In this document: positions 7,795 through 55,405 of the stretch, in pieces
Layout of the letters: each line of letters starts with the position of its first letter
Position numbering within the stretch: position 1 is the stretch's first letter
Assembly (NCBI GenBank): GCA_051011595.1
Contig: JBPCTQ010000118.1
Coordinates: 1-56,887, forward strand
Reading direction: 5' to 3'
DNA length: 56,887 bases
DNA from: Acidimicrobiales bacterium
GTDB taxonomy: Bacteria; Actinomycetota; Acidimicrobiia; Acidimicrobiales; SHLQ01
Notes under the pieces: generated by a model
What the model was told of the DNA's origin: nothing
Seen by the model: only the letters and a program-made list of their open reading frames with translations
The model's database searches: none
Program-made: the position numbers and the translations under genes

Positions 7795-9309
7795 CTAGGG
7801 GCAAGATTCGCCCTCAGGGGCTCGACCGGTGATCACCTCGGTCGTTGTTGTGGGCACGGTATCGAACGAGGGCGGCTCTTCGGTGGTTGGGGGCGCCACT
7901 GTTGTGTCGACGGACCCCACTTCGCCGCTGGTGGTCGGGGCGGCCACCGGGTCCTCGTCGAGGGCAGCCTCCACGTCGGGTTCGACCTCACCTTCGGCCC
8001 GGGCGATGAGACGAACGGTGCCGTAATCGCCGCTGACCGAGAGGCTGAGCTGCTCGGTTCCCGCCACCAGCTCGAAGGCGGGGACGGGATCGAGGAAACG
8101 ACCGATGAGCTCGGCCTGGTCGGCTTGATCCTCGCTGAAGCGGATGGTGGTGACCTCGTCGTCGAGCTCGAGCGTGGGTTCCACCACGAACTCCTTCAGA
8201 CCCAGAGCCGAACGAGCGTCGGCGGCACCGTTGCTGTCGGACCCTCCGATCACCACCGAGATGTCGGACGGTGACAAGAACCCGGCCTCGCCCCGGAACA
8301 CGTCGAACACCGCGTCGGCCTCGTCGGACCGCAGCCGCAGGACCTTGAGCCCATCAACCCGGTCGTCGAACACCGGGAGGGAGTACTGCCGCAGGCGATC
8401 GGGCTCGAAGTCGCCCATGGCATTGGCCAGCTCGATCAGGTCGTTGGGTGAGAGGCGGTCATCGAGCGTGACCGTCTGCACACCGGCTTCCACCAGGCGC
8501 CGGATCTCGACCGGGTTCCGACCGCCGGCCGCCAGGGCCTGGTCGAGGGCAACGATGAGGAAGTCCTGCTGACGTTCGATGCGAGTGAGGTCGCTGCCGC
8601 CGGTGATGCGCCAGCGGTCGTCGATGAACTCCTGGAACTCGCGACCCCGCACGTAGGCCAGGGACTGGTCGCCGTCGAGACGGTGGCACCCGGCCTCGGG
8701 GATGTCGAGGCCGGCCTTTCGGTCCATGGCCGGATTCTCGAACCACACGTGGACGCCGCCCATGACATCGATGACATCAGCGAAGCCGGCGAAGTCGACC
8801 TGGACGTAGTGGTTGATCTCGACCCCGAAGTTCTCGCTGACCGTCTCGACCAGCTTCTCCTGCCCGCCGATGGCCAACGCCGAGTTGATCTTCCACTCCC
8901 GCCCCGAACCAGGCACGTCGACCCAGAGGTCGCGGGGAATGGACACGGTGGCCGCCTGGCCGGTCTCGGGATCGACCCGCACCAACACGATGCTGTCGGC
9001 CCGGATCTGGTCGGCTTCTTCCTGATCGATGTTGCGCCCTTCCCGACGGGGATCGTCGTCGTCGAGGCCGGCGGCGCTGTCGGCTCCCACCAACAAGAAC
9101 GTGAGGGGTTCGCCCGGTTCGACCGATGGAATGAGCACGTCGGAATCGAAACTCACCCGAGGAATCCGCTGCACCTTCTCCTCGGCGTCTCGCACCAGCA
9201 CGGCAGCCGTCAGACAGGCGGCGATCACACCGAGGTTGAACAGGATCAGCAACCGCTGCGGCCAGGTCCGGCGCAGCCGCGCCGGGGAGGAGGACGCCAC
9301 GACGGCCAA
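7795..9309 (-). CDS. LytR-CpsA-Psr (LCP) family glycopolymer-to-peptidoglycan ligase with C-terminal extension
   Basis: N-terminal TM, then ADSIVLVRVDPETGQAATVSIPRDLWVDVPG and INHYVQVDFAGFADVIDVMGGV, the LCP core pattern. Confidence 0.85.
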   Translation of the reverse strand: MAVVASSSPARLRRTWPQRLLILFNLGVIAACLTAAVLVRDAEEKVQRIPRVSFDSDVLIPSVEPGEPLTFLLVGADSAAGLDDDDPRREGRNIDQEEADQIRADSIVLVRVDPETGQAATVSIPRDLWVDVPGSGREWKINSALAIGGQEKLVETVSENFGVEINHYVQVDFAGFADVIDVMGGVHVWFENPAMDRKAGLDIPEAGCHRLDGDQSLAYVRGREFQEFIDDRWRITGGSDLTRIERQQDFLIVALDQALAAGGRNPVEIRRLVEAGVQTVTLDDRLSPNDLIELANAMGDFEPDRLRQYSLPVFDDRVDGLKVLRLRSDEADAVFDVFRGEAGFLSPSDISVVIGGSDSNGAADARSALGLKEFVVEPTLELDDEVTTIRFSEDQADQAELIGRFLDPVPAFELVAGTEQLSLSVSGDYGTVRLIARAEGEVEPDVEAALDEDPVAAPTTSGEVGSVDTTVAPPTTEEPPSFDTVPTTTTEVITGRAPEGESCP

Positions 9310-9362
9310 TCTACCAATCCCACCCCCCGGACCACGGTCACCGGGCCGATAGGGTCGCCGCC

Positions 9363-10193
9363 ATGAGCGGCCCCATGGCGACAGTGTGGTTCGACGGCCA
9401 GCTCGTCGATCGCGAACTGGCCCATGTGGCCCCCACCGAACACGGTCTGACGGTGGGCGACGGCGTGTTCGAGACGCTCAAGGTCGTCGACGGCACCCCG
9501 TTCGCGCTGCGCCGTCACCTGCGGCGACTTCACCGCAGCGCCGACGGCATGGGCCTGGCGGCCCCCGAGACGCGGCTGTTGGCCAAAGCCGCCCGAGCCG
9601 TGTGCGAAGCCAATCCTGGCGCCACCAAACTCCGCATCATGGTCACCAGCGGCGATGGGCCGGCCGGCTCGGGGCGCGGCGACGGGCCATCCACCCTGGT
9701 GATCTTCGCCGACGACACGCCGCTGGCCACCGCACCGATCGTGCTGGCCACCGTGCCGTGGGCCCGCAACGAACGCAGCGCGGTGACCGGCATCAAGACC
9801 ACGTCCTACGCCGAGAATGTCCTGGCGCTGCAGTGGGCGCACCGCGAGGAGGCCGACGAGGCCGTGTTCGCCAACACCGTCGACCAACTCTGCGAGGGCA
9901 GCGGGACCAACATCTTCGTGGTGCTCGACGACCGGCTGATGACCCCGCCGCTCAGCTCGGGGTGCCTCGCCGGCATCACCCGAGAACTGCTGCTCGAGGT
10001 CACCGACGCGGTCGAGGCACCCATCCCGATGAGCGAACTGGACCGCTGCACCGAGATCTTCGTGACGTCGTCGACCCGCGACGTCGCAGCCGTTGCCTCG
10101 ATCGACGGAAGACAACTGCCGGCGCCCCCGGGACCCCACACCCGGGCCGCGACCGTCGCCTTCGCCACTCTGGCCGCCGATCTCGATCCCTAG
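9363..10193 (+). CDS. Class IV (fold type IV) aminotransferase, aminodeoxychorismate lyase-like
   Basis: 276 aa, HGLTVGDGVFETLKV...RHLRRLHRSA pattern. Its size fits ADC lyase or D-amino-acid aminotransferase rather than IlvE. Confidence 0.7.
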   Translation: MSGPMATVWFDGQLVDRELAHVAPTEHGLTVGDGVFETLKVVDGTPFALRRHLRRLHRSADGMGLAAPETRLLAKAARAVCEANPGATKLRIMVTSGDGPAGSGRGDGPSTLVIFADDTPLATAPIVLATVPWARNERSAVTGIKTTSYAENVLALQWAHREEADEAVFANTVDQLCEGSGTNIFVVLDDRLMTPPLSSGCLAGITRELLLEVTDAVEAPIPMSELDRCTEIFVTSSTRDVAAVASIDGRQLPAPPGPHTRAATVAFATLAADLDP

Positions 10194-22922: not shown

Positions 22923-22971
22923 CCGCCGAGGAGCAACGGCCTGGCGCACCTCAGCCTCTACAGTCGAACCC

Positions 22972-26626: not shown

Positions 26627-28924
26627 ATGGTCAACCTGGTGCCGGCGGGCGATCTCGCCGACGACCCTGCGGGGGACCATCGATGGGTCGTCACCGGCCC
26701 TCGGCCCCAGCTCCGGGTCGACGGGGATCTGCCCGAGGGCTGGTATCGGTTGCGGGCCCGGTACCGGGCCGACGACACCCACCCCGGTGAGGCCTTGGGG
26801 CCCCAGCTGCGTCTCACCGGCCTGGCCGGACCCGTCAGCGCGGTGTCACGGGCCCTTGGGCTCCGCGACGACCACATCGACCGCATCGTGCACATCCCCG
26901 CGCAGGTCGCCGCGGTGTTCGTCGACCTGCCCATCACCGCTCGCGCCGTCGACATCGATCAGTTCCGCTGCGAAGCCGTCGGCCAGGCTTCGGCCGCCCG
27001 CATCATGCTGCAACGGGTGCTGGCCACCAGCCGAGAAGGATCCACCCAGACCGCGTCACTGCTCACCCGAGCCTGGGAGTCGCTGCGCAGCAGCGGGGCG
27101 ACGGGGCTTCGCGAGCAGTTGGTGGCCGACTACGAGGCCGTGCAACGGCGCCGAGCCGGCCTGGTGGCCATTCCCTACCGGGAGTGGATCGAATACCACG
27201 ACGTCCGCGATGGCGAGGACGGCACCGCCATCGATGCCCACATCGCCGCCTTCACGACCACACCCACCATCTCGGTGGTGGTGCCGGTGCACGACCCGCC
27301 CGCCGAGCTGCTCGAACGTTGCCTCGACTCGGTTCGGGCCCAGCGGTATCCGCATTGGCAGTTGTGCCTGGCCGATGACGCCAGCACCGATCCAGCGGTG
27401 GCCGCCGTGCTCGACCGGTACGAGGCCTCCGATGGTCGCATCGAGGTTGTTCGCCGGAGCGAGAACGGCCACATCGTGGCTGCGTCCAACTCGGCGCTCG
27501 GCCTGGCCACTGGCGAGTTCGTGGCCCTGCTCGACCACGACGACGAGCTCCCCGACCACGCCCTGTATCTGGTGGCACAGGCCATCGACGCCGACCCGTC
27601 GGTCGACCTCGTCTACACCGACGAGGACAAGATCGACGAGGAAGGTCGCCGCTACGACCCCCACTTCAAGCCCGACTACAACCCGGAGCTGTTGCTGGGC
27701 CAGAACTACTTCTCACACCTCACCACCATTCGTCGCTCGGTGGCGGAAGAGGTCGGGTCGTTCCGGCCCGGCACCGAAGGCAGCCAGGACTACGACCTGG
27801 TGCTGCGGGTGGTGGCCCACACCGACCGGATCGTGCACGTCCCACACGTGGGCTACCACTGGCGAGCCATCGAAGGGTCCACGGCCAAGGACAGCGCCGC
27901 CAAACGCTACGTGATCGATGCCGCCCTCACGGCCCTGCGCGACCACGTGCCCGACGATTGGACGGTCGAGCCGGCCTCCGCCCCCACCACCTACCGGGCC
28001 CGGCCGCCGCTACCCGACCCGGCCCCGTCGGTGTCGATCCTGGTACCCACCCGCAACGGGTGGCCCCTCATCGACACCTTGATGACGAGCCTCGAGCTGA
28101 CCACATATCCCAACTACGAAGTGGTGATCCTCGACAACCAGAGCGACGATCAACGAGCGCTGGCCGGCTTCGCCGAGCTGGAGGCTTCCGGGCGGGCTCG
28201 GGTGGAGCCCTTCGACGCCCCGTTCAACTACTCGGCCATCAACAACCACGGGGTCGACTGCACCGACGGCGAGTTGATCTGCCTGCTCAACAACGACATC
28301 GAGATCGTCGACGGCGACTGGCTCGGGGAGCTGGTTCGCCAGGCCGTCCGGCCCGAGATCGGAGCGGTCGGCGCCAAGCTGCTCTATCCCGACCGCACCA
28401 TCCAGCACGCCGGGGTGATCCTCGGTCTGGGTGGTGTGGCCGGCCACGGACACCGCCAGTTCGCCCATGACGCCCACGGGTACTTCAGCCGACTGGCCAT
28501 CACTCACCAGGTGGGAGCGGTCACCGGCGCCTGCCTGGTGGTGCGTCGCTCGGTGTGGACCGAAGCGGGCGGCCTCGACGAGTCCGATCTGGCGGTGGCG
28601 TTCAACGACGTCGACCTGTGCCTGAAGATCACCGCACAGGGCTACCGCAACGTGTTGTGCCCGCATGTGGTGCTGGTCCACCACGAGTCGGTCACCCGTG
28701 GGGCCGAGGACACACCCGAGAAGCAGGCTCGGTTCGGCTCCGAGATCGACGTGATGCTCAGTCGGTGGGGCGGCGCCCTGTTCGACGATCCGGCCTACAA
28801 CCCCAACCTGGCCTTGGACGCGGATGCCTTCACCCTGGCCCGCGAGCCGCGTGTCACCACCCCCTGGCGCCGGCGCGCCGATAGCCTCGGGCCAGCCGAG
28901 GACCACCTCGACACGGCACCATGA
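26627..28924 (+). CDS. Dual-GT2 glycosyltransferase (glycan polymerase type)
   Basis: 765 aa. First GT2: ISVVVPVHDPPAELLERCLDSV, LADDASTD, LLDHDDEL. Second GT2: VSILVPTRNG, ILDNQSDD, LLNNDIEI. Confidence 0.8.
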   Translation: MVNLVPAGDLADDPAGDHRWVVTGPRPQLRVDGDLPEGWYRLRARYRADDTHPGEALGPQLRLTGLAGPVSAVSRALGLRDDHIDRIVHIPAQVAAVFVDLPITARAVDIDQFRCEAVGQASAARIMLQRVLATSREGSTQTASLLTRAWESLRSSGATGLREQLVADYEAVQRRRAGLVAIPYREWIEYHDVRDGEDGTAIDAHIAAFTTTPTISVVVPVHDPPAELLERCLDSVRAQRYPHWQLCLADDASTDPAVAAVLDRYEASDGRIEVVRRSENGHIVAASNSALGLATGEFVALLDHDDELPDHALYLVAQAIDADPSVDLVYTDEDKIDEEGRRYDPHFKPDYNPELLLGQNYFSHLTTIRRSVAEEVGSFRPGTEGSQDYDLVLRVVAHTDRIVHVPHVGYHWRAIEGSTAKDSAAKRYVIDAALTALRDHVPDDWTVEPASAPTTYRARPPLPDPAPSVSILVPTRNGWPLIDTLMTSLELTTYPNYEVVILDNQSDDQRALAGFAELEASGRARVEPFDAPFNYSAINNHGVDCTDGELICLLNNDIEIVDGDWLGELVRQAVRPEIGAVGAKLLYPDRTIQHAGVILGLGGVAGHGHRQFAHDAHGYFSRLAITHQVGAVTGACLVVRRSVWTEAGGLDESDLAVAFNDVDLCLKITAQGYRNVLCPHVVLVHHESVTRGAEDTPEKQARFGSEIDVMLSRWGGALFDDPAYNPNLALDADAFTLAREPRVTTPWRRRADSLGPAEDHLDTAP

Positions 28925-29790
28925 GCAGCTCCGAAACCCCCGTCATCGTCTTCTCCCCCACCGGCCGCCAGCGGGGCATCCTCGGCTCGGCCCGCGAGGT
29001 CTGGGAGTACCGCGGATTCATCGAGTACCTCACCAAACGTGAGCTCAAGACGATGTACAACCGCAGCTACCTCGGGTGGTTGTGGTCGCTCATCAATCCG
29101 ATCATCGTCCTGGCCATCTACTGGTTCGTCTTCGGCCAGATCCTCAGCATCGATCGCGGCGCACCCAGCCCCACCGGCCTCGACTCGTTCGCCCACTTCC
29201 TCATGAGCGGCCTGATCCTTTGGAACCTCTTCAGCCAGGTCTCCAACGGATACCTCCAGGCCTTCCAGCAGTCGGTGGCCCTGCGCAAGAAGCTCTACTT
29301 CCCGCCGAGCGCCCACGGGGTGGCCCGCACCATCGTGAAGGTCATCGAGTCGAGCCTCGAACTGCTCGTGCTGGTCATCTTCTACGTCGCCTTCGACAAC
29401 TTCGGGGTCACGTTCATCCTGGTCCCGGTGATGATGCTGCTGGCCGCCGTGTACGGCATGGGGGTGGGGATGCTGCTGGCCGTGCCCAACGTGCGCTATC
29501 GCGACGTCGGCTACCTGTACTCGCTGGCGCTGCGCCTGTTCTTCTACCTCACACCCATCATCTGGCCCTACGAGCTCATCCAGTCCCGCATCGATGTCCC
29601 CCTCATCCGGTTCATCGCCGAGTGGAACCCCCTGGCCAAACTCATCGAAGCCAACCGCGACATCACCTACCGGCTCCAGTGGCCCGACCCGGGCGACATG
29701 ATCTATCTCGTCGTGTCGTCCACGCTCCTGTTCCTGCTGGGCTGGCGTTCGTTCCACAAACGGTCCATCAAGGCCACCGAGGGCCTCTGA
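28921..29790 (+). CDS. wzm: ABC-2 type polysaccharide exporter permease
   Basis: ATGA overlap with the upstream gene. RELKTMYNRSYLGWLWSLINP signature and 6 TM spans. Confidence 0.85.
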   Translation: MSSSETPVIVFSPTGRQRGILGSAREVWEYRGFIEYLTKRELKTMYNRSYLGWLWSLINPIIVLAIYWFVFGQILSIDRGAPSPTGLDSFAHFLMSGLILWNLFSQVSNGYLQAFQQSVALRKKLYFPPSAHGVARTIVKVIESSLELLVLVIFYVAFDNFGVTFILVPVMMLLAAVYGMGVGMLLAVPNVRYRDVGYLYSLALRLFFYLTPIIWPYELIQSRIDVPLIRFIAEWNPLAKLIEANRDITYRLQWPDPGDMIYLVVSSTLLFLLGWRSFHKRSIKATEGL

Positions 29791-29791
29791 A

Positions 29792-30961
29792 TTGACCACC
29801 AGTCCCGATCTGCGCCCCGCAATCGTCGCCGAAGGCCTGGGCAAGATGTTCCGGCTCCATCGCAGCTCGACCAGCAGTCTGAAGTCGATGTTGGGTGGCC
29901 TCGGCAGCGCCAACTTCGAAGAGTTCTGGGCCGTCCGCGACGTCTCGATGACCATTCCCCGCGGCTCGATGGTGGGAATCATCGGCCGCAACGGTGCGGG
30001 CAAGTCGACGTTGTTACGCATGTTGTGCGGCGTCTACCAACCCTCCGAAGGCCGAGTCGAGGTCCGGGGCCGAATCACCGCACTGCTCGAATTGGGTGCC
30101 GGGTTCCACAACGAGTTGTCGGGCCGCGAGAACGTCTACATGAATGCCGCCGTCATGGGGATCTCTCGTGAGATGGTCGACGAGCGACTCGACGACATCA
30201 TCGCCCTGGCCGACATCGGCGACTTCATCAACAGCCCCGTAGAGGTCTACTCCAGCGGCATGCGGGCCCGGCTGGGCTTCGCGGTGTCGGTGTTCCTCGA
30301 CCCCGAGATCCTGCTGGCCGACGAGATCATCTCGGTGGGCGACGTCGGCTTCGCCAAACACTGCACCCAGCACATGCAACGTATGCGATCCGAGGGCGTC
30401 ACCATTGCCCTGGTGGCCCACAACCTCGGGATCATGGAGAGCATGTGCGACCACGTGGTGTGGCTGCACCAGGGCCAGCTGATGGCCCAGGGCGACCCCA
30501 CCGAGGTGGTTCGCGAGTACCGCGACTTCATGATGGGGGCCACCGACGACGTCCCGATCTCCGAGGACACCGGCGTCACCGGCATCACCCACCTCGACGC
30601 CGCCTCCGAGGACGGGGTGGCCTTCGGCTACACCGGCGCCCCCCTCACCGTCCGCGCCGGCTACGACCTGACCCGACCGGTCGAACAGGCGCAGGTGCGC
30701 GTGTTCGTGCACCACCAGAACGGGCCCGTGTACCTCGGGGACGAGTCCGGCGACCCCCGCACCCTGGAGGGACGCGGCGACATCGAGTACCACGTGCCCG
30801 TGCTGCCCGTGCCCCCCGGGCGCTACAGCCTCGAACTCCAGATCGTCGACGGCGCCGGTCACGTGATCGAGGCCCGCCGCTCTCCGCTGCCCGTTCGGCC
30901 CCTCGGTGAGCTGGTGACCGAACGCTACGTCGAGATGGGCGGCTACTGGCGCATCGACTGA
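29792..30961 (+). CDS. wzt: Polysaccharide ABC exporter ATPase with C-terminal beta-sandwich extension
   Basis: TTG start. Walker A GIIGRNGAGKSTLL, signature YSSGMRARLGFA, Walker B ILLADEI. About 140 extra C-terminal residues. Confidence 0.85.
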   Translation: MTTSPDLRPAIVAEGLGKMFRLHRSSTSSLKSMLGGLGSANFEEFWAVRDVSMTIPRGSMVGIIGRNGAGKSTLLRMLCGVYQPSEGRVEVRGRITALLELGAGFHNELSGRENVYMNAAVMGISREMVDERLDDIIALADIGDFINSPVEVYSSGMRARLGFAVSVFLDPEILLADEIISVGDVGFAKHCTQHMQRMRSEGVTIALVAHNLGIMESMCDHVVWLHQGQLMAQGDPTEVVREYRDFMMGATDDVPISEDTGVTGITHLDAASEDGVAFGYTGAPLTVRAGYDLTRPVEQAQVRVFVHHQNGPVYLGDESGDPRTLEGRGDIEYHVPVLPVPPGRYSLELQIVDGAGHVIEARRSPLPVRPLGELVTERYVEMGGYWRID

Positions 30962-31746
30962 GCGGATTCGGCTCGGGCCGACTCCACCAGCCGTTCGACA
31001 TAGCGCGAGCAGTGTTCGGGGTCGATGGTCGGATGCTCGGCCAGATCCCAGCCCTTCTGGTAGTCGAGCCGCCGCAGGACCGACGACACCATGGGCCGCA
31101 ACCACAACAGGTCGCGGTCGGTGAACCAGTGCTTCCAGTCCCCGGAGCTCTTGGTGCGCACCACTCGCTGGAGGTCGGGGCCCACGTCGGGTGTACCCAG
31201 CTCGTCGACCTCGAGGTAGATCTCCAACTGGCTGGTCTGACCGGCTATGTAGAGCTCGTAGTAGACCAAGGTGAAGAGGTCGCGGTAGCGGCCCAGCAGG
31301 TCGTTGAGCCGCGCCGTCGACCGGGCCAGTGCGCTCAACAGGTCGTTGCCCGTGAGTCGCCAGTAGGCGTGGGTCAGGCGAAGGAACGGCACCCCCACCG
31401 GGTCTTCCTCCTTCTTGCGCAGCATGTCGATGAACGTCTCGATCTTCTCCGGGTCGAGGTCGTTGACCCGGCCGTGGATGTCGTACAACAGCCACGACAC
31501 GAGGCGATCGCGGGGATCACGCACGATCAGCACCCGCCGGTCGAACTCCCCGAAGAGGTTCTTCTCCTCACCCGAGAGATTGCCGAGCAGCTTCTTGGCC
31601 ACCAGCTCGGGCGGCGACAGATCGATCTGGGTGAGGTCTTCGGGTTCGAAGTAGCTGTGTTCGGGTGCGATGTTGCGGGCGTCGCAGATGGCTCGGTGCA
31701 ACATGGTGGTGCCGCTCTTGGCCTCACCCAGGATGAGAGTCTTCAT
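30943..31746 (-). CDS. Sulfotransferase-family protein
   Basis: 5'-PSB-like loop LILGEAKSGTTMLHRAI and 3'-PB-like VLIVRDPRDRLVSWL. ATGA overlap with the upstream gene at 31743-31746. Confidence 0.65.
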   Translation of the reverse strand: MKTLILGEAKSGTTMLHRAICDARNIAPEHSYFEPEDLTQIDLSPPELVAKKLLGNLSGEEKNLFGEFDRRVLIVRDPRDRLVSWLLYDIHGRVNDLDPEKIETFIDMLRKKEEDPVGVPFLRLTHAYWRLTGNDLLSALARSTARLNDLLGRYRDLFTLVYYELYIAGQTSQLEIYLEVDELGTPDVGPDLQRVVRTKSSGDWKHWFTDRDLLWLRPMVSSVLRRLDYQKGWDLAEHPTIDPEHCSRYVERLVESARAESAQSMRQ

Positions 31747-32498
31747 GTAGAGAAGTTGTACCCGAGTTCGCGGCTGATCGGACCACAGATCTCCTCGACC
31801 AAGGCCAATGCCTCGGGATCGAGCACGTCGGCGAAGGCGTTTCGTTCGTGACGAACCCGGCCCAGCTCCTCGGGCGGCACCTGTTCGATGTCGACGAATC
31901 GACAGATCCGGCGCACCACGGTGACCGGATCACCGGTGAGGTCGGCGTAGGACACGGTGAGCATCCGTTCGGGGTTGGCCCGTTCGAACGCCGCGGCCAG
32001 AATCTCCGATTCACGCCAGTAGTTGGCGGCACCGACGACGTTGTCGACCTTCATCACCTTGCCCACCGCCAGGCTGGCCACCACATTGCGGGGGTCGCGG
32101 TAGATGTGCACGAAACGGGCGTCGGGATAGTCGGACGCCAGCAACGACACGCAGTAGATGTTCTGGGGTGTCTTGTCGAACCATCGAGTGTCGGGGTCGA
32201 GCCCTTGCTTCTCGCGGAACAGCGCCATGTACCGGTCGGTGAAGTCACGGCGGGTGTGGGAGTGCTCGAGCAGCTCCCCCATCTCGTCCTCGGTGACCTC
32301 GTCGATCTCGCGGTGGCGAGCCAGCACGGCGTTCTTGCGGTAGTTGTGCTCGAACTGGCGGGTACCGAAGGGTTGGGCCCAGCGATAGAAGTGAGTCTCC
32401 TCTGGACAACACAACCCCGGCACCGACCGGAGCAGGTCGCGGAGCATGGTGGTGCCCGAACGCACGCAGCCGAGGATGAAGAACGGAGGTTGGGTCAT
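31743..32498 (-). CDS. Sulfotransferase-family protein
   Basis: Start trimmed to MTQPPFFILGCVRSGTTMLRDLL (ATG 32498). Second motif HIYRDPRNVVASL. Confidence 0.7.
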   Translation of the reverse strand: MTQPPFFILGCVRSGTTMLRDLLRSVPGLCCPEETHFYRWAQPFGTRQFEHNYRKNAVLARHREIDEVTEDEMGELLEHSHTRRDFTDRYMALFREKQGLDPDTRWFDKTPQNIYCVSLLASDYPDARFVHIYRDPRNVVASLAVGKVMKVDNVVGAANYWRESEILAAAFERANPERMLTVSYADLTGDPVTVVRRICRFVDIEQVPPEELGRVRHERNAFADVLDPEALALVEEICGPISRELGYNFST

Positions 32499-32505
32499 GG
32501 ATCTC

Positions 32506-35500
32506 TCAGCGGGTCCAGCCGGACACGTCGCCGCGCAGCTCGTCGTACAGGGCCAGCCAGTCGGCCGCCATGGCGCCGCGACCTCGCACGTTGTGCAGGG
32601 TGGCGGTACGAGCCAGATCGGCGTAGGCCAGACGATCGCGGCCGTACTTGGCGGCGGTGTGCACGATGACCTCCGGGTCGAGCTCGTCGACGACCAGGCC
32701 ACCGCCGTGTTCGTGGACCCGTTCGGCCGGCGCCCCCAAAGGACCGGTGATGACCGGGATGCCGGCGGCCCACGCTTCCGACAGTACGTAACAGTGCGTC
32801 TCGGGCCACAGGGAGAACACCCCGATGAACGTGGGGCGGATGACAGCGAGGCGAGCCATCAGCTCGTCGCGCTGGTACTCGCCGTGGCCGTGGGCCACGT
32901 GTTCGTATCCGGGTTCGACCTTGCCGAGAATCTCCAGGCGCACGCCGGCTTCGAGGCCGGCTTCGGCGATATCGGCGGCCAGGGTGGCACCCTTGGACTG
33001 GTTGATCCCGCCCACCAGCAACAACGTGACCGGTTCGTCGTGGCGCGGGGCCCGAGCGAAGGCTCGCTGGCGCCGGAAGTCGCGACCGTGCTCGATGATG
33101 TCGATTCGGGATCCCACATCGGCACCGAAGGTGGCGATGTACCGGTCCCGGGTGTCGTTCGACGGCGTGACGAACCGGGGAATGGTCTCGAACAGCTTGG
33201 TGGTCTCGTGGCGCCAGAGGTGCACGAATCGGTGTTTGAGGGGCAAGTCGTTGGGCAAGAAGACCGGGGTCGGGCAGCGGCCCTCACCTTCGGTGCAGAC
33301 GCCACGGCAGTAGCGCAACTGTTCGTCGAGCAGGTTGACCGATGGGCAGGCCAGGTAGAAGTCGTGCAACGACATGACCACCGGCAAGCCGATGGCGTCG
33401 GCCAGCTCGGGCAGATCGAGGGTGAGCCCGATGAGGTGCTGGATGTGCACCAGTGAGATGTCGTAGCGGGTGAGCACCTCCAGCGCGATGGCTGCGGCCT
33501 CGTCGTCGTGGAACTGGCGGATGTCCCAGGGGCGAGACATGTGCCACTCGTTCTCGATGACCCACTCCGGACCCTCGTAGCGCCACAGCCGCAGTGTCTG
33601 CCCGTCGGGCATCAACAACAACGGTTCCTCGTCGCCGGCGGCGGCCTCGGCCAGATCGCGGGCGAAGTACTCGGTGCCGCCACCGCCGGCGTGCAGCACA
33701 TGCAGCACCCGGGGCAGCGTGGCCTCGTCACCGTCGTCGGTGGCGGCCGCACCGGCGATCGATCGGGCGGCCACGAACGCCGTCGACGCCACGAACTCCT
33801 CGGCCAGCGAGGCGTAGTCCGGATACCGCTCGGCCAGTACCGCCAGGCCGTCGGTGATGAGGGCGTGGCGTTGGGCGTCGCCGAAACTGGCCGACTCCTC
33901 GTGGAACACGGCCACGTCGTCGGCCACCACGTGCTCGAACCCGGCGGATCGCAACTTCATGCAGAAGTCGTTCTCTTCGCCGTACCCACGCGGGAACCCC
34001 TCGTGGTCGAGGCGGGGGACTTCGGCCAGGGCCTCGGCTCGGACATACAGGCAGAATCCGTTGCCGGTGGGACCGGTGGGCCGTAGGTAGTGGCTGGCCC
34101 GGGCCACGCGGGCGGCGATGGTGGCGCCGTGGTGCAGGCCGGTGGGCACCGGGCTGGCGAAGGAGAAGACGCCGGCGTGGTCCGACAGCGGCGTGACCGT
34201 GCCGATTCCGGGTCGTTCGATCGCCGCCAGCCGCAAGCGCTCGGTCCACCGGGGTGTGACCTGGGTGTCGCTGTTGAGGATGATGACGTCGCCCTCGGTC
34301 ACCTCGTCGAGGCCCCGATTGACGGTGGCCGGGAAGCCGAGGTTCTCGGAATTGCGGATGATGCGAACCCCCGACCGCGATCGGAGCTGGTCGATGACCA
34401 GGTCGATTCGTTCGTCGGTGCTGGCATCGTCGATCAACACGATGTCGACATCGGACGGGGTGAAACGATCGACGGCCTCGAGACAGCGTTGGACGGCATC
34501 AGCCGCGTTGTAGATGGGGATGAGGACCGTCAGCCGGCGTTGCATGGTGCCGGCCCGCAGCTCGGACCGAACATGGTCCCAGTCGGCCTGGCGGGGCGGC
34601 GGCACCACCGGCGTCTCGGTGTGCTCGTCGTCTTCGGTGCCGCTCCCGGGGCTGCGGCCCAGTCGATCGGCGAAGCGCAGCACCCACTTGACGGCAGGCC
34701 GGGAGTACAACTCGGCCAGGTCCTGGGCCGTGAGGTTACGGGTGTGGATCGCCGTTTCGAGGTCGATGCGCAGGTCGGTCACCTGGTCCTGGAGGTGATC
34801 CAGTCCGCTGAGGTCGACCTCGGCATCGGTGAGCATGGCCCGTAGCCGTTCGATCTCATCGAGGTGGCGGTCCTCGATGGCCGTCCGCTCCTGTTCGATG
34901 AGGTTGATTCGTTTGTCGGACTCGGCCTCGATGCGGGCCACGTTCTCGTGTTCGTCGGACAGGCTCCGGCGGACCTCGTCGAGGGCGTCGCTCTGTTCGT
35001 CGATGTAGTCCCGAGCCTCCTGGAGTCGCTCCTCGTAGGCGGCCTCCGATGCCCTGAACTGGTCGAGCATGCTGGCGTGACCCCGGGCGAAGGACTCCTC
35101 GGCGATCGAATCGTTGAGCTCGTACAACGACACCGCCGCCTCGAACAACAGGTCCAGACCCGGTGTCTCCCGTCCGAGGGAGGGCACCTCGAAGCCGTCG
35201 TGGCCACCGTCGAGCGACCCCAGCACCTCGAGCAGCTGATGCTGTTGGGTCGACAGAACGATGCTGGCCTCGTCGTGGCCCCGGTGGTGGCGCAAGTCGG
35301 TCTCCAACACCGAGAGGAACCGGGCCATGCGGTCGGCGGTCTCGGCGTCACCGGCCGCCGGCCCCAGTTGTTCGACCGCGAACTCGACCAGGGCCTCGGT
35401 GTGCTCGGCGCCGGCCAACAGGTCGTCGTAATCGATCACGAACAACGGCAGGTCGGCCAGGCCGGCCAACGCCGTACGCGTGTAACGCTCCCAGATGGCC

Positions 35501-35982
35501 ACACCGTGCCGTAGGGCCAGACCGTTACGGTCCCGGATCGAGTGGGCCACGCTGACCGGATCGCGCCGGAGCAACACCGCGGCTTGGGGTGCCGATGCCA
35601 CCTCGCGCCAGAACGGCAGGGTCAGACACAGCCGGGGGTCCTTCATGAGCCACCGGTCGGTGGAGTAGGCCTCCAGGAAGGTGCGCCGGGCCCGCGGCTC
35701 GAGTCCATAGGTGGGATCGACCAGCTCGGTGATCGACGTGATGGCCGCTCGGGTGGGGGCGTACCAGGCCCCGCCGGCGCGGGTGAGCAGCTCCTCGGTG
35801 AGGTCCATGAGGGCCTGGACCTCGAAGTGCCCACGCGGGTTCGATTCGTCGCCACCCACCAGGTCGGCCTCGTCGGGCAGCTCGAAGGGCATGGTGGCCA
35901 GAGCTTCGGTGGCCGCGGAGGTACCGCTGCGATGCATGCCGACGACGAACAGACCCACGGCGGCGAGCCTACCGGTGTGCAT
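32506..35982 (-). CDS. Multidomain enzyme: sulfotransferase-like domain, about 150-aa coiled coil, GT2 domain, GT4 domain
   Basis: Start at MHTGRLAAVGLFVVGMHRSGTSAATEAL (ATG 35982; ATG 36021 alternative). LLRRDPVSVAHSI. Heptad-rich region EAAYEERLQEARDYIDEQSDALDEVRRSLSDEHENVARIEAESDKRINLIEQERTAIEDRHLDEIERLRAML. GT2: LTVLIPIYNAADAVQRCLEAV, LIDDASTD. GT-B C-terminal part. Confidence 0.8.
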   Translation of the reverse strand: MHTGRLAAVGLFVVGMHRSGTSAATEALATMPFELPDEADLVGGDESNPRGHFEVQALMDLTEELLTRAGGAWYAPTRAAITSITELVDPTYGLEPRARRTFLEAYSTDRWLMKDPRLCLTLPFWREVASAPQAAVLLRRDPVSVAHSIRDRNGLALRHGVAIWERYTRTALAGLADLPLFVIDYDDLLAGAEHTEALVEFAVEQLGPAAGDAETADRMARFLSVLETDLRHHRGHDEASIVLSTQQHQLLEVLGSLDGGHDGFEVPSLGRETPGLDLLFEAAVSLYELNDSIAEESFARGHASMLDQFRASEAAYEERLQEARDYIDEQSDALDEVRRSLSDEHENVARIEAESDKRINLIEQERTAIEDRHLDEIERLRAMLTDAEVDLSGLDHLQDQVTDLRIDLETAIHTRNLTAQDLAELYSRPAVKWVLRFADRLGRSPGSGTEDDEHTETPVVPPPRQADWDHVRSELRAGTMQRRLTVLIPIYNAADAVQRCLEAVDRFTPSDVDIVLIDDASTDERIDLVIDQLRSRSGVRIIRNSENLGFPATVNRGLDEVTEGDVIILNSDTQVTPRWTERLRLAAIERPGIGTVTPLSDHAGVFSFASPVPTGLHHGATIAARVARASHYLRPTGPTGNGFCLYVRAEALAEVPRLDHEGFPRGYGEENDFCMKLRSAGFEHVVADDVAVFHEESASFGDAQRHALITDGLAVLAERYPDYASLAEEFVASTAFVAARSIAGAAATDDGDEATLPRVLHVLHAGGGGTEYFARDLAEAAAGDEEPLLLMPDGQTLRLWRYEGPEWVIENEWHMSRPWDIRQFHDDEAAAIALEVLTRYDISLVHIQHLIGLTLDLPELADAIGLPVVMSLHDFYLACPSVNLLDEQLRYCRGVCTEGEGRCPTPVFLPNDLPLKHRFVHLWRHETTKLFETIPRFVTPSNDTRDRYIATFGADVGSRIDIIEHGRDFRRQRAFARAPRHDEPVTLLLVGGINQSKGATLAADIAEAGLEAGVRLEILGKVEPGYEHVAHGHGEYQRDELMARLAVIRPTFIGVFSLWPETHCYVLSEAWAAGIPVITGPLGAPAERVHEHGGGLVVDELDPEVIVHTAAKYGRDRLAYADLARTATLHNVRGRGAMAADWLALYDELRGDVSGWTR

Positions 35983-38329: not shown

Positions 38330-39181
38330 CTACAGCTCGCCGGTAGCCAACAGCTCCACGGGGTCTTGCACGTCGAGGGTGCCCAGGTAGCCGCCGCCGG
38401 TGGCGATGGCATCGTGAGCGGCGTAGCCGATGAGCTCCTGGGCCCGACGGGGCAGGTGATGGACCATGTCGGGTGGGGTGGCCAGGATGTTGTTCTCCTC
38501 GGTGCGCAACCAGCCCACCACGAAACTGAGGTGGAACCCCCGCCGCCACTCGTCGTCGGTGTTGTTGGTGCCGCCGGCGTGGTAGGTCGACCCGAGGTAC
38601 ACCACTGCCGCCCCGGCCGGCATCTCGGCCACCTCCAGCTCGCTGTCGTCGGGATAGCGCCCGTCCTCCCAGCGGTTGCTGCCGGGAACCAGCCGAGTGG
38701 CGCCGTTGTCGGCGGTGAAGTCCTTCAGGGCCACGATCGATGCCACCTCCACCTCCGGATGGGGCTTCGGCAGGAACGACCACACGTCTTCGTCGCGGTG
38801 GATGAACTGCTGTTCGGCTCCCGGCCCCCGCTCCAGCAGATGACCGATGTTGAGCCGCCAATTGGCGCAGTTGGGCCCGAGGATCTGGGCGTTCACCGCC
38901 TCGTACAGCGGATGGCACAACACCTCGGTGGCGAACAGGGGCGAACGCCCGGCAATACCCGTGAGATGTCGCACCCGGTCGCCGAAGAAGTCGGCGATGG
39001 CGGGGTTGATGAACCGTCGCTCGTGGGGCGCCTCGGCCATCACCGGATCGAGCTCGTGGTTCAGGGCCGACACCACCTCGCCATCGAGGAAGTCGTCGAT
39101 GATGACCCCACCGTCGTCTCGCAACGCCGCCACGATCTGGTCGATGTCGTCGGTCTTGAGGAGATGGCGCAGCGCAGGCAT
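38330..39181 (-). CDS. PhyH-family Fe(II)/2-oxoglutarate-dependent dioxygenase
   Basis: Start trimmed to MPALRHLL (ATG 39181). HxD in QQFIHRDEDVW, distal His in GSTYHAGGTN, and RGFHLSF. Confidence 0.7.
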   Translation of the reverse strand: MPALRHLLKTDDIDQIVAALRDDGGVIIDDFLDGEVVSALNHELDPVMAEAPHERRFINPAIADFFGDRVRHLTGIAGRSPLFATEVLCHPLYEAVNAQILGPNCANWRLNIGHLLERGPGAEQQFIHRDEDVWSFLPKPHPEVEVASIVALKDFTADNGATRLVPGSNRWEDGRYPDDSELEVAEMPAGAAVVYLGSTYHAGGTNNTDDEWRRGFHLSFVVGWLRTEENNILATPPDMVHHLPRRAQELIGYAAHDAIATGGGYLGTLDVQDPVELLATGEL

Positions 39182-39197
39182 GCGCCGATGGTATGGC

Positions 39198-40046
39198 TCA
39201 GGCCCGGAGCTTGGCCACCAGCTCGCCGAGTGGTTCGCGGAAGTCGCGCAGCAGCGGGATGTCGCACAGGCGCAGGGCGGCATTGTCGAGCACCGAGTTG
39301 GCCGGCCGAGGAGCCGGACGGGCCGGCTGCATGTCGGCGGTGCTGATGGGTTCGACCCGGGACGGGTCGGCGCCGGCTGCTCGGGCCACTTCCTGGGCGA
39401 ACTCGTGCCAGCTCACGGCACCCTGGTTGGTGACGTGGAACCGTCCGGGCCGCTTCTCGGTGGCCAGGCGGTAGATCATGGTGGCCAGGTCGGCGCAGAA
39501 GCTGGGATGGCCCCGCTGGTCATCGACGAATCGCAGGGTGTCGTGTTCGTCGAGCAGGCCGAGGATGGTCTTCACCATGTTCTGCCCGTACTCGCCGCAC
39601 ACCCACGATGTGCGCATGATGGTGGCGTCGGGCCCCAGCTCCATCTCGCCACCGAGTTTGGTGGCGCCGTACACCGACTGGGGATTGGGTGTGTCCCATT
39701 CGAGGTACGGGCTGGTCTTGGTGCCGTCGAACACGTAATCGGTGCTCACATACGCCAGGTGGGCGTCGACCAGACGGGCCGCCTCGGCGAAGTGGCGGAC
39801 CGACAGCGTGTTCACCCGATAGGCGGTGTCGACCTCGGTCTCGCAGAGATCGACAGCGGTGAACGCGGCACCGTGCACGATGACGTCGGGGTTGGTGGTG
39901 GTGACCGCGCCGAGCACCTGGTCGCGCTGACCGATGTCGAAGTCGTCGATGTCGACGGCGATCACGTCGTGGTGGCCCGGCGCTTCGAACACCTGCACCA
40001 CGTCCTGGCCGAGTTGGCCCTTGGCCCCGGTGATCATGACCTTCAT
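39198..40046 (-). CDS. rmlD: dTDP-4-dehydrorhamnose reductase
   Basis: Start trimmed to MKVMITGAKGQLG (ATG 40046). YGATKLGGE catalytic YxxxK. DDQRGHPSF. Confidence 0.85.
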   Translation of the reverse strand: MKVMITGAKGQLGQDVVQVFEAPGHHDVIAVDIDDFDIGQRDQVLGAVTTTNPDVIVHGAAFTAVDLCETEVDTAYRVNTLSVRHFAEAARLVDAHLAYVSTDYVFDGTKTSPYLEWDTPNPQSVYGATKLGGEMELGPDATIMRTSWVCGEYGQNMVKTILGLLDEHDTLRFVDDQRGHPSFCADLATMIYRLATEKRPGRFHVTNQGAVSWHEFAQEVARAAGADPSRVEPISTADMQPARPAPRPANSVLDNAALRLCDIPLLRDFREPLGELVAKLRA

Positions 40047-40059
40047 GGCAGTCCTCGTC

Positions 40060-41016
40060 TCAGCCGTTCTTGAGTGGTTCCCACCACCAGCGGTTGTCGC
40101 GGTACCACTCGACGGTGAGGCCGAGTGCGTCGGCGAACTCGTATTTCGGAGCCCAGCCCAACGCTTCGATCTTGGTGGTGTCGATGGAGTACCGGCGATC
40201 GTGACCCAACCGATCCTCGACCCACTCGATGGCCGAGTCGTCGCGGCCGGTGAGCTCGATGAGGCGGGCCGTGATCTCGGTGTTGGGGATCTCGTTGTCG
40301 GCCCCGATGTTGTAGATCTGGCCGACCGAACCTTCCCGCAACACGGTGTCGACTCCGGCACAGTTGTCGACCACGTAGCACCAGTCCCGCACGTTCATGC
40401 CGTCGCCGTACAGCGGCACGGTGTGACCGTCGAAGAGGTTGGTGGTGAACAACGGGATCAGCTTCTCCGGGTACTGCCACGGACCGAAGTTGTTGGACGA
40501 GCGGGTGATGACGATCGGCAGGTCGTAGGTGGTGTGGTACGACATGGCGATGAGGTCGGATCCCGCTTTGCTGGCCGAGTACGGCGAGCGGGGTTCGAGG
40601 GGGTCGGTCTCGGAGAACGACCCCTCGTCGATCGACCCGTACACCTCGTCGGTGGAGATGTGCAGGATCTTGTCGACTTCGAGCTGGCGGGCGATGTCAC
40701 ACACCACGTTGGTGCCATCGCAGTTGGTGTGGACGAACACGTCGGGACCGTCGATCGAACGGTCGACATGGCTCTCGGCGGCGAAGTGCACCACCCGATC
40801 GTGGCCCGCCATCGCCTCGGCCACGGCCGCTCGATCGGTGATGTCACCCTGCACGAACGAGAAACGCGAATCGTCTTCGAGGTCGGCCACTGTCTGGCGA
40901 TTGCCGGCGTAGGTCAGCGCGTCGAAGACGGTGACCTCGTCGTCGGAGTTGTCGAGTACGTAGCGGACGTAGTTGGAGCCGATGAACCCGGCTCCACCGG
41001 TGACGAACAACTTCAT
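40060..41016 (-). CDS. rmlB: dTDP-glucose 4,6-dehydratase
   Basis: MKLFVTGGAGFIGSNYV, HFAAESHVDRS, YSASKAGSD. Confidence 0.9.
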   Translation of the reverse strand: MKLFVTGGAGFIGSNYVRYVLDNSDDEVTVFDALTYAGNRQTVADLEDDSRFSFVQGDITDRAAVAEAMAGHDRVVHFAAESHVDRSIDGPDVFVHTNCDGTNVVCDIARQLEVDKILHISTDEVYGSIDEGSFSETDPLEPRSPYSASKAGSDLIAMSYHTTYDLPIVITRSSNNFGPWQYPEKLIPLFTTNLFDGHTVPLYGDGMNVRDWCYVVDNCAGVDTVLREGSVGQIYNIGADNEIPNTEITARLIELTGRDDSAIEWVEDRLGHDRRYSIDTTKIEALGWAPKYEFADALGLTVEWYRDNRWWWEPLKNG

Positions 41017-41043
41017 GGAATTACCTCGAGGAATCGGGAAGGG

Positions 41044-41610
41044 TCAGGTACGGAGGGAGACGTGGGGCTGCCACATCGCTTCGATGTCGGCCCGCCGGGG
41101 ATTGGCCTGGTCGCGCGCCGACAGGATCGGATCGTCGAGACCCCAGTCGGCCCCGATCTCGGGATCGTCCCACGCCACGCCCAGCTCGTCTTCGGGGTTG
41201 TAGTACCCGTCGACCAGGTAGGTGATGGTCATGTCGGTGAGGCTGGCGAATCCGTGGGCCACACCCGGCGGGATGAACACCCCACGATGGCTGAACGACC
41301 CATCGGCCTGCTCGCCCAGGTCGAGCTCGAGGGTGTTGCCGTCGGTGTCTGACCCCCGGCGGAGGTCGTGGAGGACGACGCGGGCCCGCCCGAAGGGCAC
41401 ATACCAGTAGTCGGCCTGGTGCAGGTGGTAGTGCAGTCCAACGATGCAGCCGGCCTGGCGATTGCCCCGATTGCCCTGGATCATCTCCCGGCCGTTGGGG
41501 AACCACTCGCGCCGGTAGGTCTCCACGAAGATGCCCCGCTCGTCGCCGTGCACGCTGGGTTCGACGATGTGGACGCCCGCGATGGTGTCGGATTCAGTGA
41601 TCTCGGCCAT
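41044..41610 (-). CDS. rmlC: dTDP-4-dehydrorhamnose 3,5-epimerase
   Basis: Start trimmed to MAEITESD (ATG 41610), preceded by GAGGAG. HGDERGIFVETY, GLHYH. Confidence 0.85.
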   Translation of the reverse strand: MAEITESDTIAGVHIVEPSVHGDERGIFVETYRREWFPNGREMIQGNRGNRQAGCIVGLHYHLHQADYWYVPFGRARVVLHDLRRGSDTDGNTLELDLGEQADGSFSHRGVFIPPGVAHGFASLTDMTITYLVDGYYNPEDELGVAWDDPEIGADWGLDDPILSARDQANPRRADIEAMWQPHVSLRT

Positions 41611-41694
41611 GGTCTCCTCTGGCACTGGTGGGTCTGGCGGGTGCCGGTCGCAGCGGTTGACCACGCACGAGAGCCGACGGTACCGCGTTCGGGC

Positions 41695-42969: not shown

Positions 42970-43035
42970 GATGGGTGAAGGGTACGCGGTCGATCACTCG
43001 TTAAAGCGCACCGGGGCCCGCCGCAGCGGCTTCGT

Positions 43036-44196: not shown

Positions 44197-44276
44197 GGCA
44201 AAACCCTACCTATTTGGTCGGCAATTCTCACACCGACAACCACGATCGACCGGTTGTCATTCCCGCGGCGGGGTAT

Positions 44277-47973: not shown

Positions 47974-47995
47974 GGCGCAACCCTAGGCCCGTACG

Positions 47996-55369: not shown

Positions 55370-55405
55370 TTGGCGGGGAGGGGGCGCCGATAGGGTTGCG
55401 GGCTC

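Follow-up and report, generated by a model that had tools for sequence, protein, structure and literature searches.

The stretch of DNA analyzed here (the window, 56,887 nucleotides, the forward strand of contig JBPCTQ010000118.1 from an Acidimicrobiales bacterium of SHLQ01; G+C content, ~68%) encodes a surface glycan cluster with one unusually composed gene. In this fusion gene, a sulfotransferase (ST)-fold domain, a long charged helix, a family 2 glycosyltransferase (GT2) module, and a GT4-type module follow one another, and wzm and wzt, encoding an ATP-binding cassette (ABC) transporter, lie in the same neighborhood (Table 1). The computations covered how the domains fold, which motifs are conserved, how the genes are ordered, how much the spacer varies, and the recurrence of such genes in other phyla and beside Wzt_C transporters. 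By analogy with WbbB and WbdD, we consider it probable, with moderate confidence, that the locus encodes a molecular-ruler system in which sulfation would be the chain-terminating, export-licensing cap.

The fusion protein and its transporter

The longest open frame of the fusion gene begins at GTG 36021, and an ATG further in gives the frame used here. GTG 35958, 8 codons inside that ATG, is the start in orthologues and in the database gene call (P0001, 1150 aa), and it is possibly the true start, leaving 8 codons of uncertainty between a protein of 1150 aa and the longer one. The full-length architecture recurs in eight independent assemblies at 43 to 79% identity, which rules out an assembly or fusion artefact. 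A sequence-only reading of this DNA had described a four-part protein with an ST-like domain, a charged helix, a GT2 domain, and a GT-B domain in one open reading frame (ORF), and that description is borne out, the length from the ATG being 1158 aa. No transmembrane segment is found in the fusion protein, whose 19-residue hydropathy maximum is 1.39.

Both GT modules, the putative polymerase, lie C-terminal to the helix in the same polypeptide, with invariant catalytic-type motifs. The first matches Glycos_transf_2 over aa 483 to 702 (E=3e-19) as well as Glyco_tranf_2_3 (E=1.5e-10), and its D519, D523, and NSD at aa 570 to 572, a DxD-type motif, are invariant across orthologues. The second matches Glyco_transf_4 over aa 768 to 969 and GT1 (Glycos_transf_1) over aa 986 to 1126, and the EX7E pair, E1061 and E1069, is likewise invariant. 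An insertion in the N-terminal half of the GT4 module (CPSVNLLDEQLRYCRGVCTEGEGRCP) holds four cysteines, C879, C892, C896, and C903, conserved in 8 of 8 orthologues; the pattern suggests a structural metal (zinc) site, which would be unusual among GT4 enzymes.

By sequence, conservation, and predicted fold, the N-terminal domain is a sulfotransferase, one that would use 3'-phosphoadenosine-5'-phosphosulfate (PAPS). Scanned alone, the N terminus matches Sulfotransfer_3 (PF13469) over aa 11 to 195 (E=4e-5, 24.4 bits), and a precomputed PF13469 match is present in many homologues of the fusion protein. The AlphaFold2 (AF2) model, which covers aa 1 to 470 with a mean predicted local distance difference test (pLDDT) score of 86, exceeds 90 across the ST domain, and its 15 best Foldseek matches in the PDB are all PAPS sulfotransferases (E 2e-5 to 6e-4, probability 1.00), including the CurM ST (4gbm), TPST1/2, and the OLS ST (4gox). 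In 41 diverse sequences, M16, H17, R18, S19, G20, S22, N48, G51, E54, K114, P116, R117, R140, P142, and S148 are invariant, and the profile built from these sequences retrieves tick TPST (9e-5), an aryl sulfotransferase (1.4e-4), CurM (3e-4), and OLS ST domains (5e-4) from the PDB. The TPST alignment pairs GMHRSGTS with GMPRSGTT (the 5'-phosphosulfate loop), KDPR with KDPF, and RnP..VA.S with RDGRAVVHS (the 3'-phosphate motif), while the alignments to the aryl sulfotransferase and the CurM ST span the 3'-phosphate motif region only. Since the 3'-phosphate-binding R140...S148 and K114 are invariant in such diverse sequences, PAPS binding appears to be under purifying selection. The K114-R140-S148 spacing mirrors what we take to be K158-R183-S191 of TPST2, and on the same presumed mapping E54 is a plausible catalytic base. 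Thus the PAPS-type ST-like domain of the sequence-only reading gains the support of Foldseek, profile, and alignment, and the two motifs quoted there are both present (GMHRSGTS, aa 15 to 22; RRDPVSVAHS, aa 139 to 148).

TPSTs and the CurM and OLS STs (3ap1, 5wrj, 8w5z, 4gbm, and 4gox) are the closest solved folds and sequence relatives of the window domain, with which they share the 5'-phosphosulfate loop, the KDP motif, and the 3'-phosphate R...S motif. However, identity is only 13 to 17% and the template modeling (TM) score ~0.45, and their acceptors, protein tyrosine and a polyketide beta-hydroxyl, are unrelated. Homology to known terminators (the GT99 transferase for 3-deoxy-D-manno-octulosonic acid [Kdo], the WbdD kinase/methyltransferase, and GT137) was not found as a Pfam, NCBIfam, or PDB sequence match. 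Judged by its sequence, the fused ST is an analogue of these terminators that stands outside their protein families.

The spacer that follows is modeled by AF2 as a single uninterrupted helix from aa 276 to 391 (116 residues), with pLDDT above 90 over most of its length, followed by helices at aa 397 to 427 and 429 to 441 and by a disordered Pro-rich linker leading to GT2. Such a straight 116-residue helix would measure roughly 17 nm. Between aa 282 and 430 there is almost no Pro or Gly, charge is abundant, and a 3.5-residue periodicity is seen. A heptad heuristic, a crude one that flags 3 of 120 Wzt control proteins, marks about aa 302 to 425 as the sole such segment of the whole fusion protein. 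The long charged helix expected between the ST and the GTs is therefore present, with AF2 giving the helix and the heptad heuristic suggesting a coiled coil. Full-length orthologues from other Acidimicrobiia retain all of the ST motifs. Across the eight of them, between 136 and 272 aa separate the end of the ST from the beginning of GT2, and the catalytic domains align almost gap-free. Going by these sequences, the variability is what a length-setting spacer would be expected to show, and it also fits a dispensable linker.

What does the transporter add? The nucleotide-binding domain (NBD) of Wzt, aa 40 to 250, matches Aquifex Wzt 8dku (E=2e-58) and TagH/TarH (TagH, ~1e-58), beyond which ~140 C-terminal residues are unmatched. 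The AF2 model of aa 240 to 389 is a beta-sandwich (pLDDT 84) whose best Foldseek matches, at TM scores of 0.58 to 0.65, are 5hno, 8dl0/8dku/8dky/6o14, and 2r5o: the Kdo-cap-binding domain of the O12 Wzt (5hno), the 3-O-methyl-mannose-binding domain from Aquifex (8dky/6o14/8dku), and Wzt-C of E. coli O9a (2r5o). The extra C-terminal domain noticed from the sequence thus shares its fold with Wzt domains known to bind caps, and on this model it is of the cap-binding type. It is also homologous to the C-terminal domains of many other Wzt proteins. Homologues were gathered with full-length Wzt; the 139-aa C-terminal domain alone as a query matched nothing, the window protein included. Five of the homologues (P0205, P0212 to P0214, and P0217) carry Wzt_C (PF14524), and the window domain can be aligned with the C-terminal domains of these five. 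In characterized systems, such a binding domain accompanies a terminal cap and is required for export (PMC9445017, PMC11231755).

Two candidate signatures of sulfate reading were considered. An 'RR' pair, as a shared sulfate-binding basic motif, occurs in most of the close relatives aligned and is absent from the domain at an orthologous locus described below (L002), and nothing is concluded from it. A binding-domain subfamily tracking the ST terminator was rejected, as homologous domains occur in loci with methyltransferases (L007) or with only stand-alone STs (L006 and L008). A profile of the window family misses the binding domains that adjoin ST genes in other phyla.

Table 1 Features of the fusion gene and the surrounding glycan cluster (positions within the window)
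Feature	Position	Strand	Basis
ST / coiled-coil / GT2 / GT4 fusion gene	32506..35982	-	ORF from ATG, 1158 aa + stop; Pfam domains; orthologues
N-terminal ST-fold domain, aa 9-262, candidate chain terminator	35197..35958	-	AF2, Foldseek, profile, conservation
Helical spacer / predicted coiled coil, aa 276-441, candidate molecular ruler	34660..35157	-	AF2, composition, heptad heuristic
GT2 (GT-A fold) module, aa 483-745	33748..34536	-	Pfam and invariant motifs
GT4-type (GT-B fold) module, aa 758-1150	32533..33711	-	Pfam Glyco_transf_4, Glyco_trans_1_4, Glycos_transf_1; EX7E
ST-A, stand-alone sulfotransferase	31743..32498	-	Sulfotransfer_3 E=1e-35; GCVRSGTT, YRDPRNVVAS motifs
ST-B, stand-alone sulfotransferase-like	30943..31746	-	Sulfotransfer_1 E=1e-4, at cut-off; GEAKSGTT, VRDPRDRLVS motifs
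wzm, ABC-2 permease	28921..29790	+	ABC2_membrane E=7e-20
wzt, ABC transporter ATPase, 389 aa	29792..30961	+	NBD matches; C-terminal domain ~30575-30958
Double-GT2 protein, 765 aa, upstream of wzm	26627..28924	+	Two Glycos_transf_2 stretches
rmlB	40060..41016	-	GDP_Man_Dehyd/Epimerase; dTDP-rhamnose pathway
rmlC	41044..41664	-	dTDP_sugar_isom; dTDP-rhamnose pathway
LCP (LytR-CpsA-Psr) protein, candidate wall ligase	7795..9477 (stop-to-stop)	-	LytR_cpsA_psr E=3e-36

Gene neighborhood, orthologous loci, and the wider sulfotransferase subfamily

The fusion gene, ST-A, and ST-B form a minus-strand operon that converges on a plus-strand operon of the double-GT2 gene, wzm, and wzt. ST-A starts 7 nt past the stop of the fusion gene, and ST-B and ST-A overlap by 4 nt. 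The sequence-only reading had placed the fusion gene next to wzm/wzt; the shared neighborhood stands, direct adjacency does not, as ST-A and ST-B intervene, and its inventory of STs, correct for the fused domain, had overlooked these two further STs in the same operon. At their 3' ends, the convergent wzt and ST-B genes share 19 nt (30943 to 30961), which leaves no space for separate terminators.

Homologues of the double-GT2 protein, 761 to 771 aa long, adjoin wzm in three related loci (L001, L006, and L007), and the protein is probably responsible for a conserved portion of the glycan. The rmlB and rmlC genes are syntenic in L001, L002, L007, and L008. The window also holds several GT4 genes, a UDP-glucose dehydrogenase gene, and genes for a TagF-like protein and SpoIID. 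ORFs sized like cysD, cysC, and cysN were instead identified as rmlB, rmlC, and a membrane protein gene. Methyltransferase, kinase, and Kdo-transferase (GT99) domains were absent from the window ORFs scanned. Because the closest homologues are annotated as metagenome-assembled genomes (MAGs) of Acidimicrobiia or Acidimicrobiales, the likeliest product is a polysaccharide linked to the wall of a monoderm actinobacterium. A Gram-positive wall setting, as had been supposed from the sequence, is plausible given these homologues and the LCP ligase, the TagF-like protein, and SpoIID in the window.

A GT2 gene (21582 to 22922), a 424-aa ORF without an assigned function, and a GT-C/PMT_2 membrane protein gene (23942 to 25543) are clustered within 21582 to 25543 on the plus strand, a trio that resembles, by analogy, systems for extracytoplasmic addition of side-chain sugars from polyprenyl-phosphate sugars. 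On the minus strand, 41695 to 42969 encodes a 424-aa protein with ~12 hydrophobic segments and no Pfam match, syntenic in L001, L007, and L008 (416 to 431 aa) and replaced in L002 by a 519-aa Pfam-less protein; it could be a flippase, a ligase, or a polymerase-like pathway component. A PhyH-family Fe(II)/2-oxoglutarate dioxygenase gene (38330 to 39283, minus strand) lies between SpoIID and the rml genes, is absent there in L001 and L002, and may modify the glycan or be unrelated. The cluster is flanked by a TauE/SafE sulfite-exporter family gene (47987 to 48745, plus strand) and a ThiF/rhodanese MoeB-like gene (43036 to 44196, minus strand), whose links to sulfur are probably coincidental. Farther out, a secreted-type ribonuclease ORF (PF00545, barnase/RNase family; 55394 to 55915, plus strand) is unrelated to the glycan cluster.

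Orthologous loci retain parts of this arrangement. In L001, the fusion gene (P0005) is followed by ST-A- and ST-B-like genes, the ST-B orthologue at the same position, and wzt/wzm are nearby. In L002, a single operon holds wzm, wzt (408 aa, with a homologous C-terminal domain), and the ST-GT2-GT4 gene (P0007), and no stand-alone ST lies within 10 kb. Because L002 keeps the fused ST and the binding-domain Wzt without any stand-alone ST, the fused ST is the conserved partner of this type of Wzt in the clade. A conserved site in Acidimicrobiia carries ThiF/rhodanese, a protein of ~420 aa with 12 transmembrane segments, rmlC, rmlB, (rmlD), SpoIID, and wzm/wzt (38330 to 44205 in the window; L001, L002, and L006 to L008). 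GT, ST, and methyltransferase content at this site differs completely between genomes. The same syntenic site holds methyltransferases in L007 and only stand-alone STs in L006 and L008, so the glycan locus is hypervariable and behaves like an O-antigen locus in a monoderm lineage.

The fused domain belongs to a much larger GMHRSGTS subfamily of STs, with ~16,000 representative clusters at E<=1e-30 and members in no fewer than 560 species genomes, spread over many phyla. Many of these are stand-alone proteins of 300 to 400 aa. By the heptad heuristic, a coiled-coil-like segment begins no more than 150 aa after the ST domain in 75 of 92 proteins of the subfamily; these segments span ~30 to several hundred residues and are usually followed by GT modules. 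Some members (P0064, P0089, P0045, P0053, and P0054) have several hundred coiled-coil-like residues by the same heuristic, summing to ~950 in P0064 and ~1000 in P0089; if such long segments act as rulers, very long polymers would be specified.

Linkage to Wzt was counted in 80 representative loci of the subfamily within an 8-kb radius. A Wzt-type ATPase is present in 20 of them, and 13 of these 20 ATPases have a C-terminal extension of at least 146 residues. Where wzt lies within 100 nt of an ST gene on the same strand, 5 of 6 cases have an extension of at least 160 residues (L038, L051, L067, L069, and L079; L046 has none). Stand-alone STs adjoin wzt in L006, L008, and L083. Two cultured Gram-negative bacteria show the arrangement in classic form. 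Pelagicoccus mobilis KCTC 13126 encodes wzm and a wzt with Wzt_C (76.5 bits), followed by a 687-aa protein consisting of an ST and ~290 residues of coiled coil without any GT, like WbdD, and then GT4 and GT2/GT1 genes. Salinivibrio sp. ES.052 encodes wzt (Wzt_C, 85.6 bits), a stand-alone ST, and then a 1059-aa ST/coiled-coil/GT2/GT2 protein. From its sequence, a protein made only of an ST and a coiled coil, placed between a Wzt_C-bearing wzt and GT genes, would be a WbdD-type terminator and is hard to explain otherwise. In the Vicinamibacteria MAG locus L004 (14795 to 16651), the second gene downstream of the ST/GT fusion encodes a sulfatase, which hints at turnover or editing of a sulfated product.

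Sulfate as a candidate chain cap and the alternatives

Proceeding from these data, we infer PAPS use, a terminal position of the sulfate, oligomerization of the coiled coil, a ruler effect, and reading of the cap by Wzt. In the mechanism we propose, the GT2 and GT4 modules, working on the cytoplasmic side of the membrane, would lengthen a chain that is carried on a polyprenol and probably contains rhamnose. The helix of ~116 to 165 residues would oligomerize into a coiled coil, keeping the ST roughly 17 nm or more from the GTs, and the ST would reach only sufficiently long chains, transferring sulfate from PAPS onto the nonreducing terminal sugar. Occupying the hydroxyl that the following glycosyl transfer requires, the sulfate would end chain growth. 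The beta-sandwich of Wzt would then bind the sulfated end and license export through Wzm/Wzt, an LCP enzyme would link the exported polymer to the wall, and ST-A and ST-B would add further sulfates, probably on internal residues. The hallmarks of capped systems, a terminator on a coiled-coil protein and a Wzt binding module (PMC11231755), are all present by fold or sequence.

A number of observations weigh against this mechanism. The Sulfotransfer_3 score of the fused domain, 21.1 to 24.4 bits, is below the 27-bit gathering cut-off, and Wzt_C (PF14524), the best Pfam match of the Wzt C terminus, is also below threshold (E=0.004; 17.6 against a cut-off of 30.4 bits). Between L002 and the window, the Wzt binding domains have diverged much further than the ST domains have, and no shared basic motif was found among the Wzt binding domains paired with STs. 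The binding-domain family is not sulfate specific, because L007 pairs a homologous domain with methyltransferases. A long ruler is not essential to the protein either, because three orthologues (P0007 to P0009) keep a coiled-coil-like segment of only ~30 to 40 residues. In the wider subfamily, 60 of the 80 loci have no Wzt within 8 kb, 7 of the 20 nearby Wzt proteins have no C-terminal extension, P0024 (L005) adjoins a 230-aa Wzt without a binding domain, and no ABC transporter occurs within 10 kb of the members from Congregibacter (L003) and Vicinamibacteria (L004). No genes for PAPS synthesis (APS kinase and ATP sulfurylase) are seen within the window. Finally, the fused domain is not the sole candidate cap enzyme of the window, and because ST-A and ST-B are encoded in the same operon, internal sulfation is possible and the sulfate could be internal rather than terminal. 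A universal coupling of ST/coiled-coil proteins to binding-domain Wzt proteins is rejected on the exceptions in L003, L004, L005, and the 60 loci.

On which sugar, then, does the fused ST act? One alternative is that it sulfates the body of the polymer internally, possibly together with ST-A and ST-B, that the helix merely oligomerizes or scaffolds, that length and export are governed otherwise, and that the Wzt C terminus reads another feature. This view is in keeping with three sulfotransferases in one operon, with family members beside a Wzt lacking the binding domain or beside no ABC transporter, with the very short coiled coil of P0007 to P0009, and with internally sulfated bacterial polysaccharides that are already known, such as the Cobetia capsule (PMC11766843) and synechan (PMC8205485). 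However, it leaves unexplained both the regular pairing of an N-terminal ST with a coiled coil of variable length and the Pelagicoccus protein, with its ~290-residue coiled coil right after a Wzt_C-bearing wzt. In addition, the Wzt binding domain goes with a terminal cap in characterized systems (PMC9445017, PMC11231755), and no other cap enzyme is found in the cluster. We regard internal decoration as unlikely on balance, while giving it appreciable weight.

A second alternative keeps the cap and assigns it to ST-A, ST-B, or an enzyme encoded outside the window, the fused ST acting on another acceptor, for example an adaptor sugar or the lipid-linked primer. ST-A, a canonical Sulfotransfer_3 protein with a strong match, is coupled in translation to the fusion gene, and both the recurrence of ST-A- and ST-B-like genes in L001 and the stand-alone STs next to wzt in L006, L008, and L083 would be accommodated. 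It is at odds with L002, where a Wzt binding domain and a fused ST occur with no stand-alone ST within 10 kb, and with the distal position of the ST on the helix, which fits terminators and not primer-modifying enzymes (PMC11231755), making this assignment distinctly improbable. Least credible of all, and rejected for the kinase version on motif and fold grounds, is that the N-terminal domain has no PAPS sulfotransferase activity and serves instead as a degenerate module for structure or binding, or as a phosphate-adding enzyme resembling P-loop kinases (compare the WbdD kinase): the sub-threshold Pfam score, the relatedness of the ST fold to P-loop kinases, and weak Foldseek matches to dephospho-CoA and shikimate kinases speak for it, but those kinases reach only E>0.01 against 2e-5 to 6e-4 for sulfotransferases, the GMHRSGTS loop has no Walker-A lysine and aligns with GMPRSGTT of TPST, and K114 and R140...S148 are invariant in the 41 sequences.

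Relation to known systems and significance

The proposed sulfate-capped system comes closest to WbbB of Raoultella terrigena and Klebsiella pneumoniae O12 (PMC11231755), in which, as in the window protein, a terminator at the N terminus is followed by a coiled-coil spacer and a C-terminal pair of GT modules. WbbB works with a Wzm/Wzt partner, and the cap-reading domain of that Wzt (5hno) is what the window Wzt C terminus matches best in structure. The WbbB terminator, however, is a GT99 beta-Kdo transferase in place of an ST-fold domain, and its product is a lipopolysaccharide O antigen, whereas the window host is presumably a monoderm actinobacterium making a wall polysaccharide; a PDB search gave no sequence match to WbbB. 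In WbdD/WbdA of E. coli O9a and Klebsiella O3/O5 (PMC3482155, PMC11231755), a coiled-coil-mounted enzyme adds a nonsugar cap (methyl or methylphosphate), as proposed here, and export needs a Wzt binding domain; that of O9a (2r5o) is likewise among the structures matched by the window Wzt C terminus. WbdD differs in its kinase and S-adenosylmethionine-dependent methyltransferase chemistry and in recruiting a separate polymerase, while the polymerase modules of the window protein are fused; the Pelagicoccus ST/coiled-coil protein without a GT has the split organization of WbdD/WbdA. ORF6 of Klebsiella pneumoniae O7 (PMC11231755) likewise combines an N-terminal nonglycosyl terminator, a coiled coil, and two C-terminal GTs, and the O7 system shares with the window a rhamnose-containing chain (probable in the window) and extra enzymes as stand-alone proteins. 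Its terminator is a methyltransferase-kinase pair and both of its GTs are GT2, compared to an ST with GT2 and GT4 here. The 1059-aa Salinivibrio protein resembles either WbbB or O7 ORF6.

A eukaryotic precedent for sulfation as a stop signal is the HNK-1 sulfotransferase acting on matriglycan, where sulfation of the terminal sugar is reported, in work by Sheikh and colleagues dated 2020 and cited in PMC12514197, to stop elongation of the repeat. That ST is a Golgi enzyme in an unrelated sequence context, with neither a coiled-coil ruler fused to a polymerase nor a cap-reading exporter.

The only length-regulating caps in papers of 2022 and 2024 are methyl, methylphosphate, and Kdo (PMC9445017, PMC11231755), and the pyruvate of O1 is a nonregulating terminal group (PMC9445017, PMC11231755, PMC10629545). 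In Aeromonas salmonicida, an unexplained ST-domain gene lies between wzt and a wbbB homologue, and no sulfate was detected in the O antigen (PMC4483657). The sequence-only reading held that sulfate as a terminating modification had not been described. In the openly searchable literature, no paper linking a sulfotransferase to a coiled-coil terminator was found, and to that extent the claim stands; the 2019 bioinformatic census of terminator chemistries by Mann, Kimber, and Whitfield (Glycobiology 29:822), which is outside that scope, may already list such proteins. Because ST/coiled-coil genes directly adjoin canonical Wzt_C genes in public genomes, the census may well have listed them as a predicted new chemistry. 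What is new relative to the plan of WbbB, O7 ORF6, and WbdD is the terminator chemistry and the host, and the chemistry has possibly been predicted in silico already.

Beyond the window, we advance more tentatively the idea that sulfate is a widespread class of chain-terminating, export-licensing cap that experiments have yet to recognize, added by a dedicated subfamily of GMHRSGTS STs on coiled-coil rulers and read by Wzt domains in monoderm Actinomycetota as well as in Gram-negative phyla. If this is true, the surface glycans of many environmental bacteria would each carry one sulfate, at the terminus, which would determine the length of the polymer as well, and a function would be at hand for a very large uncharacterized ST subfamily. 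A terminator on a ruler together with a cap-reading ABC transporter is among the best-understood quality controls of glycan assembly, and the regulating chemistries shown so far are three, all from Gram-negative O antigens; sulfate would be a fourth, strongly anionic one, and the mechanism would extend to a poorly studied actinobacterial class. Terminal sulfates would then be dominant surface epitopes, relevant to phage and to interactions with hosts and particles. The cultured Pelagicoccus mobilis and Salinivibrio strains make the sulfate-cap hypothesis directly testable, and modular ST/coiled-coil/GT proteins could serve for making size-defined, end-sulfated polysaccharides.

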